From UHGV virus genome UHGV-0210832: 40,024 bases of DNA. The stretch is one strand, 5' to 3'. Numbering within the stretch: position 1 is the first letter of the stretch; every line of letters begins with the position of its first letter. The notes beneath the pieces are model-generated. The model was not told the DNA's origin, made no database searches, and worked only from the letters and a program-made list of their open reading frames with translations. Shown here in pieces: positions 1,880-39,133 of the stretch. The position numbers and the translations under genes were made by a program. This stretch comes from a virus.

Positions 1880-2125
1880 GTCTCAGGTCACTAATACTAT
1901 CTAAATAGTTGATTCATAGTGACTGGGTATGTTGTGTTTTGTCGCATTTTATAGTCTGTTATTTAACCGCAAATGCGTATAACAATATGATTTTTAAATA
2001 ATTTATATGATTTTGTCATCCTTTAATAAGTAAAGTTGCACATTTAAAATCTCTTTAATTATCAATAAACTACAATGTATAGGTCATTATTAGTCAAAAT
2101 AAAATCATTTGTTGATTTCAATTTT
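1880..2125. other. attP: attP region: lambda-like Int arm-type sites (P arm about 1885-1935, P' arm about 2081-2125) flanking a divergent core near 2015-2040
   Basis: Sequence aggtcactaatactatctaaatagttgattcatagtgactg (1885-1925) and ggtcattattagtcaaaataaaatcatttgttgatttcaattttgtccc (2082-2130) closely resemble my recollection of the lambda attP P and P' arms. The core tcatcctttaataagtaaagttgca (about 2017-2040) differs from the lambda core. Confidence 0.6.
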
Positions 2126-3178
2126 GTCCCATTCTCTCCCTCGGCTGTCCCTATACCGCGCCGCCATTGAATCTGATTTATGCCCGAGAAGACGTTGAGC
2201 AAACTTATCGCCAATCTGATTCCGGTATAGCCTCGCCGACAGGCTACGCAGTTCATGGAATGTTGGCGGGTCTCCATCAAATGAGAGTCCAGATGCATTT
2301 CTCGCCTTTGTAAAATACTTAGATACTGTTTTCGGGGAAAGCGGTTCGTGATGCGTTGATGCAATTATTGTTTCACTGCCGCTGGCCTCCCTGCATTTCT
2401 GTAGTGTATCAGCCAATGAAATATTGAGCGCGTCAATCGTTAGCGTCAGCGGAATGGCGAGCTTAGCCCCTGTTTTACCCTGTTCAATGTGAAGATGGTT
2501 GTCGTTTATGTCTGACCATTTCATTTTGCACAAATCGCCGACTCTCTGACCTGTAACGACGGCCAAATCCATCGCAAGCCTCAGCCAGATTGGGAGAGGT
2601 TCGGCTGCATGGTGAATTGCGACATACTCATTAGCTGTCAGCCTTGAGCGCCTTACTTCTGACTTTGCTGTGCGGGTTGCTGTTACCGGATTCGTAGCCA
2701 CATGCCCCTCGGCTATTGCCTCACGAAAAACGTCAACAAGGGTTGACCTGATTAATTTTGCGGAAGCCGCTTTACCTTCTGCTACGTAGGTGTTTAGCAT
2801 TGCTGCCACCTCTTTCGTTGATATGTCAGCGAGCGGTTTGTCCGGCAATTTTCTTCGGATTGCCCTGATTTTGCTGGCGTAGTCGAGTAGAGTTTTCGGC
2901 CTGATACCCCTCTCGCTGAGGATTGTTTCATATCGGTCAAGCCACGCATGAAGAGTTATTGCGTCAGCGCCTTTAATTCTGTCTATCAGTGACTCACGCC
3001 TGTTCCCGGATAGCAACTCAATATTGGCCTGTATAGCTTCAGTGATTGCTATGCGTCTGTCTCGGCCTAATCCGAACTCTTTACCCGTCCTTGGGTCCCT
3101 GTAGCAGTAATATCCATTGTTTCTTATATAAAGATTAGGGGGTAAATCCCGGCGCTCATGACTTCGCCTTCTTCCCAT
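2105..3178 (-). CDS. int: Tyrosine integrase, lambda Int family
   Basis: 357 aa; N-terminus MGRRRSHERRDLPPNLYIRNNGYYCYRDPRTGKEFGLGRDRR and C-terminus HELRSLSARLY...LLGHKSDSMAARYRDSRGREWDKIEI match my recollection of lambda Int almost throughout. Confidence 0.95.
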   Translation of the reverse strand: MGRRRSHERRDLPPNLYIRNNGYYCYRDPRTGKEFGLGRDRRIAITEAIQANIELLSGNRRESLIDRIKGADAITLHAWLDRYETILSERGIRPKTLLDYASKIRAIRRKLPDKPLADISTKEVAAMLNTYVAEGKAASAKLIRSTLVDVFREAIAEGHVATNPVTATRTAKSEVRRSRLTANEYVAIHHAAEPLPIWLRLAMDLAVVTGQRVGDLCKMKWSDINDNHLHIEQGKTGAKLAIPLTLTIDALNISLADTLQKCREASGSETIIASTHHEPLSPKTVSKYFTKARNASGLSFDGDPPTFHELRSLSARLYRNQIGDKFAQRLLGHKSDSMAARYRDSRGREWDKIEINK

Positions 3179-3458: not shown

Positions 3459-4082
3459 TTAAAATTCGAATTGTCTCGCCCGAAGGCTTTTCAACATTGG
3501 TCTTGCCCGTTCGAAAACGGCGCTTGTCTGATCAAGTCGTGTCGCCTCCCTTAGCAGTACATCTCTGTTTTTCGTCACCGCATAGAAGGTTTCAAACGCA
3601 ATGTCATACAGCTTACTCGCGTATGATGAGTTAAGTTCCTTCATTATCGGGTACAGGCGTTTGCAGATGTCCTGTGCATTCTCCATCTGTACCTGCATGT
3701 AGCACAGGAGGATGATTTCTTCGTCTGTGAATTGCTGCGCTGGTTGCATGTTGCGAAGTATCTTTTCGCACTCGATGAAGTATCGGCGTATCTGGCGGCC
3801 TTTTTCGTTACGCTCGACCATCGCCAGTTCTTTGGCTGTGTCGAGGGTGAGGTGGTAGTCCTTGCGGTTGTGACCGCCTCTACCAGATGTTTGCTTTCCC
3901 AAATTGGAAAGCAAAATATAGTCTTGATTTTCAATGAATTCGTATTCTGAAATGCGATTTGTAATCCATGCCGCAAACACCTTTTTCACGCCTAAAAAAG
4001 CATGCAGATCGCGGGCATTGCAGAGTAGGGCTGTTTCGTTGGATATAGTGCCGTTGAATACGGGGATGAGTTGACTGGTCAT
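3459..4082 (-). CDS. AntA/AntB-type antirepressor-like protein
   Basis: Start moved to MTSQLIPVFNG (ATG 4082-4080) because of GGAGG 5 nt upstream. NARDLHAFLGVKKVFAAWITNRISEYEFIENQDY resembles the AntA N-terminal domain as I recall it. Confidence 0.55.
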   Translation of the reverse strand: MTSQLIPVFNGTISNETALLCNARDLHAFLGVKKVFAAWITNRISEYEFIENQDYILLSNLGKQTSGRGGHNRKDYHLTLDTAKELAMVERNEKGRQIRRYFIECEKILRNMQPAQQFTDEEIILLCYMQVQMENAQDICKRLYPIMKELNSSYASKLYDIAFETFYAVTKNRDVLLREATRLDQTSAVFERARPMLKSLRARQFEF

Positions 4083-4244
4083 GATGACCTCCTTTGAAGT
4101 TTTAGTTAGCAATCACCAGTTAGTGGCTGGTGATCGGGTGTCAACTAGAGCCTTCAAAGACGCTCCGGGCATATTCCCCTTGCGGGTATTGTATTACGCC
4201 TCTCCACCCGACCTTTGTACGGATGTGACTATGCCAAATTGCAG

Positions 4245-6006: not shown

Positions 6007-6262
6007 TGGTTGCCTCCGTTTCCCACGTTTTCAAACTTTCACCACAGAACGGGCAAAAGCACATTGCAATGCCACGACCGATATATTTCCCCGAGTGAAT
6101 TTGAGCAATATCTATGCATGACTCGCCGGTGTTTATGTTCACACGCTCCGGGATAAATATGCCTTTACTCTTGAATGTTGGATTTCCATATTCGAGAGAT
6201 TTTGCCAACGCCGCGCACGGTTCTATCTTGTTGCCATTAATTTGGCATTTTGACTCACTCAC
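5993..6262 (-). CDS. Hypothetical Cys-rich small protein (possible zinc ribbon)
   Basis: 89 aa ORF with C...C and CPFC spacing; tightly packed in the operon. Confidence 0.45.
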   Translation of the reverse strand: MSESKCQINGNKIEPCAALAKSLEYGNPTFKSKGIFIPERVNINTGESCIDIAQIHSGKYIGRGIAMCFCPFCGESLKTWETEATSEQD

Positions 6263-6696
6263 TGGTTGCCTCCTTTGCGAAGCTGGGCGGCTAACTCATC
6301 ACATATGTGCGTCAAAGAGCAAAGTTTGATTGATGGATGTTCGCGCATCATCTCAACCCCCTGCGCCCGCACCTCAGCAAGGAAAGCATCGGTGGCTGGG
6401 GTGCCTGATTGCAGAGACTTTGCGCGATAGTCATTCCACCCTCTTGCATACATGGGATTAACTTGCACTCCATCTTTTACGCAATATGCCTGCCCTCCAC
6501 GGTTGATAACCTTGATTTCGTCCATAGCGCCAGACTTCAGCCCCGCATTCTCCGCTGCCAGCGCCGCGCACTTGGCCTGCGCTTCAGCAAATTTACGCAC
6601 CAGATATTCAGCGTTTGTTTCGTTAACCTTTAAATCTCGTGGGATGCATTTACCTTTCAGAAATCCATCCATCTCAATTAGTGTCATTTGTTTCAT
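6259..6696 (-). CDS. Hypothetical protein (145 aa)
   Basis: ORF in operon register; start/stop overlap with neighbours. Confidence 0.5.
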
Positions 6697-6860
6697 TTCT
6701 TCCCACTCCGCAACATCGCATTCAGATATTTGTTTTGATTCACTGACGGAAAAGAATTTCTCTTAAGCAATTCTTCCTCTCTCGATGGCATTGGCTTTAC
6801 GCGTTGGCGAATAATCATTTCTGCCGGAAGAATGCCGGGATTGTATGCAAGTCCTCTCAT
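6693..6860 (-). CDS. Hypothetical small protein (55 aa)
   Basis: Start set at MRGLAYNPG (ATG 6860-6858) with GAGGAA RBS; the longer track ORF would overlap the upstream gene by 56 nt. Confidence 0.4.
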
Positions 6861-6870
6861 GGTAAATTCC

Positions 6871-7164
6871 TCAGTCATTACTGATAGCGCCATAGCGTGA
6901 GCGGTAATTACGCAGGCGCGGGTCAATTTCAGGGAATTTGTCTATTGTCGCTTTTCGCAACGGTCGCATTGCTGTTTCGTTTGTTCGGTCCTTCTCATCT
7001 TTTAACGCGAGCTGTATATCGCGTCGGTACATCCGTTCTGCTTTTGTTTCTGGTGTCAGAGCAAGAAACGCGTCGAAATTGTTTTTGATATTTTCCAGCA
7101 CCTCCGCCTTGGAGCTACCGGAGCAGTTGCGCGGGTCATCCGCACCATACAGAGGCGCTGGCAT
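6871..7164 (-). CDS. Hypothetical protein (97 aa); weak guess at an Abc2-like anti-RecBCD function
   Basis: 97 aa ORF immediately downstream of the recombination module. The Abc2 idea rests only on position and size, not on recognised sequence. Confidence 0.4.
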
Positions 7165-8759: not shown

Positions 8760-8892
8760 TTTTGGGAACTCCTGGCTGATTAAGTATGTCGATAAGGCGT
8801 TTCCATCCGTCACGTAATTTACGGGTGATTCGTTCAAGTAAAGATTCGGAAGGGCAGCCAGCAACAGGCCACCCTGCAATGGCATATTGCAT
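8752..8892 (-). CDS. cIII: CIII (FtsH inhibitor), 46 aa
   Basis: Not in the ORF track (under 60 aa). Manual translation from ATG 8892-8890 gives MQYAIAGWPVAGCPSESLLERITRKLRDGWKRLIDILNQPGVPKNG, matching lambda CIII as I recall it; AAGGAG RBS 7 nt upstream. Confidence 0.8.
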   Translation of the reverse strand: MQYAIAGWPVAGCPSESLLERITRKLRDGWKRLIDILNQPGVPKNG

Positions 8893-8964
8893 GGTGTGCT
8901 CCTTATTTATACATAACGAAAAACGCCTCGAGTGAAGCGTTATTGGTATGCGGTAACGCCGCGC

Positions 8965-9485: not shown

Positions 9486-9812
9486 CTACATAATTATTCC
9501 GGTTATTATTACCATTTCAATATCACTATCTTTCATAATGATTGGAGTTGAGTTATCAACTTTACTTTTACTCCATTTTCCTGCATCAGTTTTTACCACT
9601 CCACAATAAGAAAGCCAATCATCATCACAATGTTCTGGGTCGCTAATTCTAACAAGAACACGTGATAGTGCTTTTTCGATACTTTCATCACAATCAGCAT
9701 TTATGTAATTGCCGTGAGACAATTTCAAATCGTTAACCTCATCTTCATTGGCATCAAAAATATAGATTTCAGTCGACTCTGGAATATTTTCATAAACCAT
9801 TAAAATTTTCAT
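9486..9812 (-). CDS. Hypothetical protein (108 aa)
   Basis: ORF in the pL operon between N and cIII; no recognisable motif. Confidence 0.45.
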   Translation of the reverse strand: MKILMVYENIPESTEIYIFDANEDEVNDLKLSHGNYINADCDESIEKALSRVLVRISDPEHCDDDWLSYCGVVKTDAGKWSKSKVDNSTPIIMKDSDIEMVIITGIIM

Positions 9813-10316: not shown

Positions 10317-10461
10317 ATATCACCTTAAATAGTGGATTGCGGTAGTAAAGATTGTGCCTGTCTTTTTACCACATCAGGCTCGGTGGTTCTCGTGTACCCC
10401 TACAGCGAGAAATCGGATAAACTCTATTCACCCCTACAGAGAGAATGATGGAGATTCACCG

Positions 10462-11001
10462 ATGAGTAACTGGTGGCAGGAACTGTTACGTTTCTTCCTG
10501 CGTGGTCTTACGCTACAACAGTTAATTCATATGCTTATTATTTTAATTGCCTTGATAATAATCACCCCAGCATCAATTAAAGAGTGGGTAGATATAAGGA
10601 ACCCAGAAATACTTCCAGATCACTGGATGTATTACGCAATGCTTTTGTGTATCAGTTATGTTCTGAACAGGGTGATGGAGTTTATATTTCTGGCATCTTC
10701 AGACAGATATAAAAAATATCTCAGTAAGAGAGATGAGGCTAAAGTAATTGTGGAGACTGAGCGCCTGTTCAATTCTCTGAGTATTCAGGAAAAAGAGGTT
10801 TTAGCATTTGCTGTTATGGCAAATAACAAAATTGTACTTAAGCACGGCGATCCGGTCGCTTTATCTCTTATGAGAAAAGGCCTTCTCCATCGCTCAGGTG
10901 TGACTTACAGCGCGTCAGGTAAAGAGAAATTTGTTATACCTGACGTCTGGTTCCATGAGTGTTATATGCGCTTTGCTGGTAAAGCTGATGAGCTAATTTA
11001 G
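10462..11001 (+). CDS. sieB: Superinfection-exclusion SieB-like membrane protein
   Basis: Start set at MSNWWQELL (ATG 10462) with GGAGA RBS; N-terminal TM helix LIHMLIILIALIIITPASI. Sits between N and cIII on the opposite strand to pL, as I recall for sieB in lambda and P22. Confidence 0.4.
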   Translation: MSNWWQELLRFFLRGLTLQQLIHMLIILIALIIITPASIKEWVDIRNPEILPDHWMYYAMLLCISYVLNRVMEFIFLASSDRYKKYLSKRDEAKVIVETERLFNSLSIQEKEVLAFAVMANNKIVLKHGDPVALSLMRKGLLHRSGVTYSASGKEKFVIPDVWFHECYMRFAGKADELI

Positions 11002-11724: not shown

Positions 11725-11910
11725 TTACAGAGCAAAGAGATCACGCATTAGGTTGCTGTTCATCTGGTGGTTGAATTGATACGGCTCCAGTTCTTTTTTG
11801 ATCTCGTTCAGGTGCTGTTCCGCTTTTCTTGCCAGATTGCGACTTTCTTGGATCTGGCTTTCCAACATTTTGTTGAGAATTTCCATCTCCGGTTGCAGAT
11901 TCTTCGGCAT
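11725..11910 (-). CDS. Small predicted coiled-coil protein (61 aa) in the rex-equivalent locus
   Basis: AAAGAGGA RBS 8 nt before ATG 11910; codons in this frame are host-typical (CTG, CCG, AAC, GAG); the frame closes 14 codons upstream of the ATG. Confidence 0.5.
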   Translation of the reverse strand: MPKNLQPEMEILNKMLESQIQESRNLARKAEQHLNEIKKELEPYQFNHQMNSNLMRDLFAL

Positions 11911-12745
11911 TAGTATTGTCCTCTTTATCTTGTGTAGTAAGAGGGAAATCCATCACCCTTGGTTTTCCAAACGTTGGGATTTCACCACTATGAATCTTAT
12001 CACAGAAAAAATTATCGAGTATTTCTGTTATACCTTTAGGACATTCAACACACTTGAAAAGTTCCTTGGCTTCTTTTCTGTCGATAACAAATCCATGTGA
12101 AGGATACGAAGCGATGAGTTTGCTTAACGCCCCTTCTTTTAGACTACTTGGCTTGTCTGCTAACCGTTGACCATAAGTGATAGCAATGCTCATCGCACGC
12201 TGATGCTCACCAAGTTTTATTGGATCTATCTGAGCAGCCATGGGGGCTATCAATGCCTCTGTAAGTCTGGTTGCGATGTCAGCAGATATTTTAGTGCTTA
12301 TCTGGTTTTCGTATTTTATCTGAACAAGGTATGAGTTAAACGCTGAAATAGAGCGCTCCTTCAGTGCATCGAGAGCTGTCATAATGGCTAAACCAGAACT
12401 CATCTCACCTATTTCATCGTTTTTTTTCAGTTGGATATCTAATGGCCCGAGCTCACCCATGTCACCGATAACAAGTTTATTCGCAGCTATGGCTATTAGT
12501 GTACCAGCACTTTTGCACGGCCCAACAACTAAAAGTGTTACCGTTTCATAATAGTGCTGGAGAGCCCTACCTATACGATAACCAGCATTAGGATCACCGC
12601 CATAAGTAGCAACACAGAAGATAACATTCTTTTTTAATTCATTTTGTGACTTACGCTTCTTGATTTTATTGGTTAGATCAAGATAACCATCACGATGAAT
12701 ATCGCCTATATACACATAAACATCATTATTTTCAATAGTATTCAT
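11741..12745 (-). CDS. ClpP/crotonase-fold (S49/SDH-like) serine-protease-domain protein in the rexAB-equivalent position
   Basis: 334 aa; GGGAG RBS before ATG 12745. N-terminal ~130 aa align by eye to ClpP: VATYGGDPNAGYRIG against YINSPGGVITAG and VVGPCKSAGTLIAIAANK against CMGQAASMGAFLLTAG (putative nucleophile Ser in KSAG). The last ~56 codons overlap the 61-aa ORF in another frame and use rare codons. Confidence 0.55.
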   Translation of the reverse strand: MNTIENNDVYVYIGDIHRDGYLDLTNKIKKRKSQNELKKNVIFCVATYGGDPNAGYRIGRALQHYYETVTLLVVGPCKSAGTLIAIAANKLVIGDMGELGPLDIQLKKNDEIGEMSSGLAIMTALDALKERSISAFNSYLVQIKYENQISTKISADIATRLTEALIAPMAAQIDPIKLGEHQRAMSIAITYGQRLADKPSSLKEGALSKLIASYPSHGFVIDRKEAKELFKCVECPKGITEILDNFFCDKIHSGEIPTFGKPRVMDFPLTTQDKEDNTNAEESATGDGNSQQNVGKPDPRKSQSGKKSGTAPERDQKRTGAVSIQPPDEQQPNA

Positions 12746-19668: not shown

Positions 19669-19853
19669 ACGCCACAATTCAAACGATACCAGAGCTTCTT
19701 ATCCAGACACGAGGCAATCAGACCGAAGTGGCAAGGATGCTTTCCTGCGCAAGAGGAACAGTGCTCAAGTACAACCGAGACAGCAAAGGCGAGCGTCACG
19801 TAATAGTTAACGGCGTCCTGATGGTCACGCCAGGCAAAAAGGGAAGACGATGA
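19665..19853 (+). CDS. ninH: NinH
   Basis: 62 aa MNATIQTIPELLIQTRGNQTEVARMLSCARGTVLKYNRD, a NinH-like HTH small protein (from memory). Confidence 0.65.
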   Translation: MNATIQTIPELLIQTRGNQTEVARMLSCARGTVLKYNRDSKGERHVIVNGVLMVTPGKKGRR

Positions 19854-20368
19854 GTATAAGAGAGCTAAACCTCACCAAAGAACAGCACGAGTGGCTGAAT
19901 GGCTGGCTTGAACTGTGGGGCGCATGGGTTTATTCAGGTCGTCTTGAAAAGCGCATGAGCAGCGTAATAGCGAAGTTCATGGAGAGCGTAGAGCCGGGAA
20001 GAGTTATGACAAGGCCAATGTGCAATGATGATGATGGAATGTTGATTTCTCAGGTCGTCGATTCCGTCATGTACATTGACAAGAAAGCCTTTGGCATCCT
20101 CCTCAGCTACTACGCTCATGGTTCATCTAAGAGAGCAATTGCATCCTACTATCACGCGACTGCAAAGCCACGCAAGATGTGTGGACGCGGTGGCGAGGGA
20201 TGGAGAAAACCTTCACTGGCAACCTGTAGAAACGAAATTGACGATATCCTGAAAGCGTCATTATTTGTTTTGTACCAACCAATGCAAAATGCTTTCAAAA
20301 TGCGTAAACGTGTTGAGAAAGTTAAGCATGTTGCTGTTAAAAACCTTGACATGCAATTAGCCATTTAG
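19850..20368 (+). CDS. Q: Late-gene antiterminator Q-like
   Basis: 172 aa; last gene before the late promoter and lysis cassette. Sequence-level recognition is weak; the call is mainly positional. Confidence 0.55.
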   Translation: MSIRELNLTKEQHEWLNGWLELWGAWVYSGRLEKRMSSVIAKFMESVEPGRVMTRPMCNDDDGMLISQVVDSVMYIDKKAFGILLSYYAHGSSKRAIASYYHATAKPRKMCGRGGEGWRKPSLATCRNEIDDILKASLFVLYQPMQNAFKMRKRVEKVKHVAVKNLDMQLAI

Positions 20369-20375
20369 CCATAAT
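20346..20375 (+). promoter_or_regulatory. Candidate late promoter pR'
   Basis: TTGACA (20346-20351), 18-nt spacer, CATAAT (20370-20375), straddling the Q stop codon. Confidence 0.45.
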
Positions 20376-20385
20376 TAGAGGGTAA

Positions 20386-20430
20386 GCTGCCGTTAGTGAC
20401 TCTTAAGTTGCAACGGTGGCTTTTTTATTT
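20386..20430 (+). terminator. Hairpin plus T-run just downstream of the candidate pR' (tR'-like or Q-dependent pause/termination signal)
   Basis: GCTGCCGTT ... AACGGTGGC imperfect stem (contains palindrome GTTGCAAC) followed by TTTTTTATTT, ending immediately before the tRNA-Asn 5' end. Confidence 0.4.
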
Positions 20431-20505
20431 GGGTCAGTCGTATAAAGGTCATTACGGAAGGCTGTTAACCTTCTTATCGTGGTTCGAGTCCACGCTGTCC
20501 CGCCA
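20431..20505 (+). tRNA. tRNA-Asn (anticodon GUU), 75 nt with encoded CCA
   Basis: Hand-folded cloverleaf: 7-bp acceptor stem (one mismatch), anticodon stem GAAGG/CCTTC with loop CTGTTAA (U33, A37), T-arm CGTGG-TTCGAGT-CCACG, discriminator G, CCA. Confidence 0.55.
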
Positions 20506-20510
20506 AATAT

Positions 20511-20586
20511 GCTGGTTTAGCTCTAATGGTAGAGCAGTCGCCTTGTAAGCGAATGGGTAGCGGTTCAAGTCCGTTAACCAGCACCA
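20511..20586 (+). tRNA. tRNA-Thr (anticodon UGU), 76 nt with encoded CCA
   Basis: Hand-folded: perfect 7-bp acceptor stem GCTGGTT/AACCAGC, D-arm GCTC-TAATGGTA-GAGC, anticodon loop CTTGTAA, T-loop TTCAAGT, discriminator A, CCA. Confidence 0.55.
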
Positions 20587-20828
20587 TAACTGAGCCGTAG
20601 CCACTGGCTATCCTGAATTCATCAGTGATAGTTATGCTGCGGCCTTCTAAACATGACCTTCGTGAAAGCGGGTGGCAAGAGGCTGCGCTAACAACCTCAT
20701 GCCGTTTTGCTCGTGCATATCGGTCACGAACAAATCTGTTTACTAAACACAGTAGCCTGGATTTGTTCTATCAGTAATCGACCTTATTCCTAATTAAATA
20801 GAGCAAATCCCCTTATTGGGGGTAAGAC

Positions 20829-21152
20829 ATGAAGATGCCAGAAAAACATGACCTGTTAGCCGCCATTCTCGCGGCAAAGGAACAAGGCATCGGGGCAATC
20901 CTTGCGTTTGCAATGGCGTACCTTCGCGGCAGATATAATGGCGGTGCGTTTACAAAAACAGTAATCGACGCAACGATGTGCGCCATTATCGCCTGGTTCA
21001 TTCGTGACCTTCTCGACTTCGCCGGATTAAGTAGCAATCTCGCTTATATAACGAGCGTGTTCATCGGCTACATCGGTACTGACTCGATTGGTTCGCTTAT
21101 CAAACGCTTCGCTGCTAAAAAAGCCGGAGTAGAAGATGGTGGAAATCAATAA
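20829..21152 (+). CDS. S: Class I holin (lambda S-like; dual-start MKM motif)
   Basis: 107 aa [39 protein letters not shown]... appears nearly identical to lambda S as I recall it. Confidence 0.9.
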
Positions 21153-38897: not shown

Positions 38898-39071
38898 ATG
38901 ATAGTCAAGTCAGACGCACCAAAGTACCCTTTGCGCATCCCATTAGAGGTTAAGTTAGCAATCGAGAAGTCAGCGAAAGAAAATGGTCGCTCAATAAATA
39001 CCGAGATGGTAATGCGGTTAGTGGATAGTTTAAGGCGGGATAGTTCTAAAGGTAATCTAGCAAAAAGTTGA
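38898..39071 (+). CDS. arc: Arc-like ribbon-helix-helix repressor
   Basis: Start at MIVKSDAPKYPLRIPLEV (ATG 38898) with GGAGGT RBS; RHH core PLEVKLAIEKSAKENGRSINTEMVMRL resembles P22 Arc. Confidence 0.7.
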   Translation: MIVKSDAPKYPLRIPLEVKLAIEKSAKENGRSINTEMVMRLVDSLRRDSSKGNLAKS

Positions 39072-39133
39072 AGCCCCAACTGCGGTAACAGTCAGGGCTT
39101 CGGTATCAACAAATCGGATTAGGAAATATTGAC

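Follow-up and report, generated by a model that had tools for sequence, protein, structure and literature searches.

A late-leader tRNA-Asn(GUU)/tRNA-Thr(UGU) cassette in a P22-like phage genome and its possible role in replacing tRNAs cleaved by abortive-infection nucleases

Why would a temperate phage keep two tRNA genes, and only two, at the very start of its late transcript? The question is raised by UHGV virus genome UHGV-0210832, whose 40,024 nucleotides were analysed as a whole (hereafter the window) and represent a P22-like mosaic with Kapi1, CUS-3 and HK620 as relatives. Two adjacent tRNA genes, Asn-GUU and Thr-UGU, had been proposed between its Q and holin genes. Late-leader tRNAs have a precedent in the Stx phages (933W and relatives), in which ileZ-argN-argO lies between Q/pR' and the first late genes; these are other isoacceptors, for rare Ile and Arg codons, and they are usually explained by codon supplementation. 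For the Asn/Thr pair we favor, with a probability of roughly 0.6, a different reading, namely that these are Q-dependent, nuclease-resistant replacement tRNAs, a role that has been demonstrated experimentally for a tRNA-Thr differing by one base and that we infer for the present copy and for tRNA-Asn.

When both strands of the 40 kb window were scanned with ARAGORN exactly two tRNAs were called, both on the plus strand: a 75-nt tRNA-Asn(GUU) at 20431-20505 with discriminator G73, and a 76-nt tRNA-Thr(UGU) at 20511-20586 with discriminator A73. Each has an encoded CCA end, and the spacer between them, read from the sequence, is the 5-nt AATAT (20506-20510, plus strand). Rfam RF00005 agrees with ARAGORN on both genes and on the coordinates first proposed; the scores of 55.3 bits for tRNA-Asn and 63.2 bits for tRNA-Thr (whole-window E-values 2e-9 and 1e-11) are far above the gathering score of 29, and both genes span model positions 1-71 of 71. 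The tRNA-predictor check suggested with the original prediction thus came out in its favor, and the features it had listed (U33, A37, TTCRAGT T-loops and encoded CCA) are present in both genes, the T-loops being TTCGAGT and TTCAAGT. Its description of the cloverleafs as canonical is slightly generous, since the RF00005 covariance alignment places U4.U69 and U13.U22 mismatches in tRNA-Asn, while tRNA-Thr has G27 opposed to A43 and, as residue 14, a pyrimidine. The anticodon arm of tRNA-Thr reads GUCGC/GCGAA (G27 U28 C29 G30 C31 / G39 C40 G41 A42 A43). We note that the acceptor-stem mismatch of tRNA-Asn (window 20434/20498) is fixed, save for one contig in which G4 gives a G.U pair, and that at window 20524, position 14 of tRNA-Thr, T is found here and in 7 viral contigs and C in most, A being near-universal there in tRNAs.

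The expectation that the two genes would be unlike those of the host and phage-specific in sequence was borne out, with identities of 58.7% to asnT and 65.8% to thrU of E. coli K-12. The identity elements for AsnRS are G34, U35, U36 and G73, and those for ThrRS are G1-C72, C2-G71, G35 and U36; tRNA-Asn has G34-U35-U36 and G73, and tRNA-Thr has G1-C72, C2-G71, G35 and U36. By these features they are two complete, genuine elongator tRNA genes, and the production of mature charged RNA from them is predicted. A reading as att fragments or pseudogenes was ruled out, both genes being full length and high-scoring with the CCA encoded. Both also lie 17 kb from int (2105-3178), which is not the placement of a tRNA-like attP fragment.

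How the pair would be expressed is indicated by its surroundings. Upstream is the gene for a late antiterminator Q of the phage-21 type (19850-20368, plus strand; Pfam PF06530 Phage_antitermQ, E 1e-25), which shares 82% identity with phage 21 Q and 99% with Sf6 gp59 and has no relationship to lambda Q. Its 3' end is overlapped by a late promoter pR', TTGACA-18-CATAAT (20346-20375, plus strand), found by a promoter scan with 11/12 matches and annotated at the same position, as P R', in Sf6. Next comes a short late leader (20382-20430, plus strand) in which RNA folding and reading of the sequence place tR', with a hairpin at 20386-20420 and a U-tract at 20421-20430; the approximate qut region falls within this leader, and qut and t R' are annotated here in Sf6. 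The 5' end of tRNA-Asn is 1 nt after the U-tract, as it is in phage 21, Sf6 and HK446, and the phage 21 record describes a homologous 50-nt terminated transcript, "aRNA", that stops 1 nt before tRNA-Asn. Directly after the CCA of tRNA-Thr homology to lambda restarts and continues into the holin gene by way of a 242-nt lambda-type untranslated leader (20587-20828, plus strand), delimited by alignment with lambda and phage 21, in which no Rfam family was found at E<=1. The first late protein gene, taken from the ORF list, encodes a lambda-type S holin/antiholin with the dual start MKM (20829-21152, plus strand); this S107/S105-type gene is followed by R and then Rz, and its Sf6 homologs, genes 60 and 61, carry the annotations S107 and S105.

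The promoter and the hairpin with its T-run abutting tRNA-Asn are thus where they had been predicted, and the pair does lie between Q, a PF06530 gene, and the holin, a lambda-type S. With tRNA-Asn directly after the tR' U-tract, tRNA-Thr 5 nt further on and the lysis genes downstream, the position of both tRNAs immediately beyond pR' and tR' implies expression by Q-dependent read-through, in line with the late expression originally envisaged. pR' would fire constitutively, and without Q the transcript would end at tR' (20430). Host RNase P and 3' trimming enzymes would then presumably free the tRNAs from the read-through transcript, and host AsnRS and ThrRS would be expected to charge them.

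The cassette is already known, its annotation going back to the records of Sf6 and phage 21, and it contains no new sequence feature. The original prediction held the tRNAs to be worth confirming in this P22-like background, a point overtaken by their existing annotation in Sf6, BTP1, SPN9CC and others. A 501-bp stretch containing the tRNAs matches many phage records at 96-98% identity, and in many of these both tRNA-Asn and tRNA-Thr are annotated. In the Sf6 record (AF547987) the module is complete, running from a 21-like Q through P R', qut and t R' to tRNA-Asn and tRNA-Thr ("similar to phage 21") and on to lambda-like S, R and Rz. Phage 21, Sf6, HK446, BTP1 and SPN9CC (AJ237660, AF547987, JQ086372, LT714109 and JF900176, respectively) share the same genes, order, 5-nt spacing and position after tR', with 100% identity to the window in tRNA-Asn and 98.7% in tRNA-Thr. 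The tRNA-Asn of the window agrees at 75/75 nt with phage 21, Sf6, phage L and JLK-2012, and its tRNA-Thr is identical over 75/76 nt to those of phage 21, Sf6 and HK446, the sole difference being T for C at D-loop position 14. The pair is present, and annotated by PGAP, in 369/5426 complete E. coli genomes; at least 120 IMG/VR viral loci match 25 nt of tRNA-Asn; and among 126 cassette-bearing loci, mostly IMG/VR contigs with a few reference phage records, the slot holds Asn and Thr in 111. Literature searches for expression data on the BTP1 or Sf6 tRNAs gave nothing relevant, and the subject of the P22 small-RNA paper is the attP/thrW fragment, not the Asn/Thr cassette.

The cassette is not bound to one kind of late promoter region. 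The promoter-proximal sequence of the window matches Sf6, not phage 21, and viral contigs combine the 21-type hairpin with no fewer than four promoter-proximal sequences, while about 15 contigs have a lambda-type terminator. HK446 has the same pair behind a lambda-type Q, pR', 6S leader and tR', and there too it begins immediately downstream of the T-run. Since the cassette is found behind two unrelated Q/tR' types, it appears to move as a module of its own. The GenBank record of HK446 annotates neither tRNA, and ARAGORN calls both (locus positions 1214-1369); a preprint (10.64898/2026.07.10.737580) credits HK446 with one Thr(UGU) tRNA only. In P1, a temperate coliphage, Asn(GUU) and Thr(UGU) genes also lie side by side in that order, as trnA and trnT, where the genomic context is different and the identity to the window pair is 55-56% (Asn) and 76% (Thr). 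The adjacent Asn(GUU)/Thr(UGU) pair of a T5-like phage belongs to another sequence lineage, with identities to the window pair of 61% (Asn) and 78% (Thr); compared with that phage, the present one is temperate and has only two tRNAs, with no tRNA-Lys, yet the two anticodons are the same.

Conservation across the lineage argues that the genes are maintained. Of 118 cassette segments of full length, drawn from IMG/VR contigs, the window and a few reference records, 105 carry this same tRNA-Asn. In 73 viral contigs sharing the lambda-like downstream leader, nucleotide diversity is 0.0075 for positions 1-50 of tRNA-Asn and 0.011 for tRNA-Thr, as compared to 0.036 for the adjacent non-coding DNA and 0.11 for the spacer, which is polymorphic (AATAT, AACAT or GACAT). 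Strict conservation among the cassette copies extends to anticodons, identity elements and CCA ends. In tRNA-Thr compensatory variants were found, with G5-C68 replaced by U5-A68 in five contigs and A49-U65 by G-C in one. Over 24 distinct tRNA-Thr sequences 94% of cells are paired, as against 21-50% with slid partners, and 9 pairs are changed on both sides; none of 500 shuffles reaches the observed score, a control that is only indicative because the sequences are related. Covariation support is confined to tRNA-Thr, as the tRNA-Asn lineage is almost invariant and its five-lineage alignment is too small. The 3- to 5-fold lower diversity of the tRNAs relative to the non-coding DNA around them, together with the compensatory changes, indicates continued purifying selection across the lineage (at least 118 contigs), and the 27-43 pair, unpaired in 20/24 tRNA-Thr sequences, makes the short anticodon stem a fixed trait of the lineage.

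The slot itself appears to have been rebuilt in some relatives. In JLK-2012 (locus positions 781-934) and about 10 IMG/VR contigs the "tRNA-Thr" is chimeric, its first 25 nt being phage-21-like and the remainder host thrU-like; G42U/U43C leaves it a 3-bp anticodon stem, and it escapes ARAGORN. Behind it stands a Gly(UCC) tRNA that shares 97% identity with host glyT and departs from it by C6-G67 to U-A, U8C and A38G. This slot looks like a captured host thrU-glyT region with later anticodon-arm mutations, and Gly(UCC) is listed as an OLD target in preprint 10.64898/2026.07.10.737580. In the Salmonella P22-like phages L (locus positions 781-852), ST64T and PS3 the second gene of the slot is a 72-nt annotated tRNA-Leu(TAA), likewise without an ARAGORN call, which may be a decayed or re-purposed tRNA.

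What such tRNAs might be for is suggested by recent work on the P2 Old protein, a Toprim nuclease that kills by cleaving host tRNA-ThrU, the sole UGU tRNA in MG1655 (PMC12445682). According to the same study phage tRNA-Thr(UGU) molecules rescue cells, including that of phage 21, "tRNA-Thr21", which owes its resistance to Old to C28U/G42A together with a shortened anticodon stem. A July 2026 preprint (10.64898/2026.07.10.737580) likewise reports strong counter-defense against OLD by the tRNA-Thr(UGU) of HK446, host tRNA-Thr(UGU) being without effect, so that in the two 2025-26 studies the phage 21 and HK446 molecules resist P2 Old and restore ACA decoding. The window tRNA-Thr has each of the features described in PMC12445682, namely the UGU anticodon, U28, A42 and an unpaired G27.A43. 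Compared via the GenBank phage 21 record, and with HK446, it is the same molecule save for one D-loop base, and its anticodon arm is identical. It would thus presumably resist Old, the experiments having been made with a copy one base different; we note that resistance and rescue were measured on the phage 21 and HK446 copies expressed from plasmids, as distinct from native late-leader expression.

For the pair as a whole, the main benefit would most likely be the provision of copies of two isoacceptors that are destroyed by enterobacterial Toprim-family abortive-infection nucleases; the diverged phage anticodon stems would lack the nuclease determinants, and decoding of ACA and of AAC/AAU would survive in late protein synthesis. 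The nuclease for which both isoacceptors are targets is AriB of PARIS, which cleaves host Lys(UUU), Thr(UGU) and Asn(GUU) tRNAs between positions 40 and 41, adjacent to U36-A-A-U39, with U39 being critical; PARIS is neutralized by the T5 versions of all three tRNAs together (PMC12409363). Around this site the window tRNA-Thr has G39 and G41 and tRNA-Asn has C39 and U41, as compared to U39 in the host tRNAs, and where host asnT has the paired CNG motif (C28-G-G30 / C40-C-G42) the phage tRNA-Asn has A28 and U42. From these differences tRNA-Asn, too, would be expected to resist these nucleases. Any diverged stem might lack CNG and U39 by chance, however, so the absence of these motifs is not evidence of selection, nor is the pattern uniform, with P1 tRNA-Asn keeping U39 and the P1 and T5-like tRNA-Thr keeping the CNG pair. 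The set is also incomplete against AriB, as ARAGORN finds Asn and Thr but no tRNA-Lys in the window, and the AriB suppressor screen recovered phage tRNA-Lys only (PMC12445682); lacking tRNA-Lys(UUU), the primary AriB target, Asn and Thr alone are probably not enough against B185 PARIS. We put forward only tentatively, at somewhat less than even odds, that tRNA-Asn is itself a counter-defense tRNA, and that the repeated pairing of Asn and Thr in lambdoid/P22-like, P1 and T5-like phages mirrors enterobacterial Toprim nucleases, perhaps AriB- or OLD-like variants, that co-target exactly these two.

The tRNA-Thr may not be the only measure of this phage against Old. The ORF at 6262-6696 (minus strand) is 41% identical to HK446 gp27 (tblastn E 1.5e-25), an Old inhibitor named Oad2 (OLD anti-defense 2) in the 2026 preprint; it adjoins abc2 and a 93%-identical gp28 homolog (6696-6860, minus strand). 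An Oad2-like gene, putatively encoding an inhibitor, alongside tRNA-Thr suggests layered anti-Old measures. On the side of the trigger, the window phage has Abc2 (6871-7164, minus strand), which does not trigger P2 Old; tblastn found no homolog of the HK446 Old trigger Gp33 in the window, and a scan of ten early-left ORFs turned up no Gam. With a non-triggering Abc2, neither Gam nor Gp33, and an Oad2-like gene present, tRNA-Thr may be redundant here or a mosaic passenger.

The familiar alternative is that the pair merely supplements decoding, supplying more decoders for codons favored by the phage, mainly ACA, whose single host decoder is of low abundance, for faster late synthesis, with no part in defense. 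The codon-usage comparison that had been proposed lends this some support for Thr: in 17 late genes 26.8% of Thr codons are ACA (14.9 per 1000 codons), and in 27 early genes 34% are (17.2 per 1000), as against 10.2% in 42 annotated K-12 genes (5.4 per 1000), a 2.8-3.2-fold higher frequency per codon than in the K-12 sample (Fisher p 6e-10 to 6e-13). For Asn it gives little, as Asn codons are only mildly enriched (47 vs 38 per 1000, p 0.003), and although this rise, the ACA enrichment of both late and early genes and a single UGU tRNA in MG1655 are what supplementation would predict, the Asn codon bias is near that of the host and the host tRNA for Asn is multi-copy. Nor is the ACA enrichment specific to late genes; the early genes are the richer, and the tRNAs are made late. 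This timing counts against counter-defense as well, given that the tRNAs lie behind tR' and yet the ACA-richest early proteins must precede Q-dependent expression. Low ACA in Q (19850-20368) and the N-like gene (9486-9812, minus strand) would fit translation before the phage tRNA-Thr is made, but with 1 and 0 such codons where about 4.5 would be expected in all, the deficit does not reach significance (Poisson P about 0.06). What supplementation leaves unexplained is that the anticodon-stem changes are exactly those that block Old cleavage, and that overexpressed host tRNA-Thr(UGU) does not rescue while the phage versions do. With ACA use about three times that of the host and one host tRNA reading ACA, supplementation probably adds to the benefit, and the same high ACA use raises the reliance of the phage on the tRNA lost to Old; as the sole explanation we consider it unlikely, though the most serious of the rivals.

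It is improbable, in our estimation, that the cassette is simply carried along with the Q/pR'/tR'-holin junction by lambdoid recombination and brings little or no benefit to this phage. The coincidence of homology boundaries with the cassette ends is what such passage would produce, and the non-triggering Abc2, the absence of Gp33 and Gam and the Oad2-like gene described above would leave tRNA-Thr little to do; the low diversity and compensatory changes across the lineage, in at least 118 contigs, speak for continued purifying selection. Less probable again is that the cloverleafs serve RNA processing, as RNase P or RNase E entry sites that cut off the terminator leader and fix where the late mRNA starts and how stable it is. 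Their location at the extreme 5' end of a transcript of more than 15 kb, directly after the tR' hairpin, would suit such a role, yet lambda has the same downstream leader and does without the cassette, a pure processing signal would not need strictly conserved anticodons, identity elements and CCA, and the near-identical tRNA-Thr works in trans from a plasmid. Least probable of all is that the pair makes good the loss of a host tRNA gene interrupted by an integrating prophage, an idea raised for HK446, whose attP resembles thrW, in preprint 10.64898/2026.07.10.737580. thrW encodes Thr(CGU), not UGU, and would leave Asn unexplained; the same cassette is present in many different lambdoid and P22-like phages. 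These phages integrate at various sites, and attP sites that target tRNA genes normally rebuild them. In the window the integrase is lambda-type, ARAGORN finds no other tRNA or fragment, and E. coli matches to the att region (1600-2150) carry no tRNA feature, attB being located only approximately.

The genome is mosaic elsewhere as well. The window also encodes SieB, the lambda-type integrase already mentioned and, at its left edge, a tailspike. Rfam matches the lambda cIII thermoregulator at 8847-8905 (minus strand, 88.5 bits) and the P22 sar antisense RNA at 39066-39132 (minus strand, 72.7 bits), and the presence of both indicates a lambda-like early-left region and a P22-type immI in one genome. 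A match to RF02221 (sRNA-Xcc1) at 4124-4213 (minus strand), with 64.5 bits against a gathering score of 53, is in an unexpected setting for that family; it lies immediately 5' of an AntA/P22AR-like antirepressor ORF (3459-4112, minus strand). Between sieB (10354-11001, plus strand) and the repressor region is a 334-aa ORF (11741-12745, minus strand) with only weak, sub-threshold ClpP/SDH-protease-like matches, which may be a moron or a defense gene.

tRNA-cleaving abortive infection, as exemplified by P2 Old and PARIS, and the replacement tRNAs with which phages answer it are an active field of research, to which this cassette contributes a temperate-phage example for Thr(UGU). The leads that it offers are the conserved tRNA-Asn, its nature as a discrete module, slots that appear rebuilt from host thrU-glyT, and an Oad2-like gene in the same phage. 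tRNA-Asn is always part of the cassette and is highly conserved, and the experimental papers have left it out of account. If it is indeed a counter-defense tRNA in its own right, the two-tRNA cassette would represent the smallest evasion set within the means of a small temperate phage.
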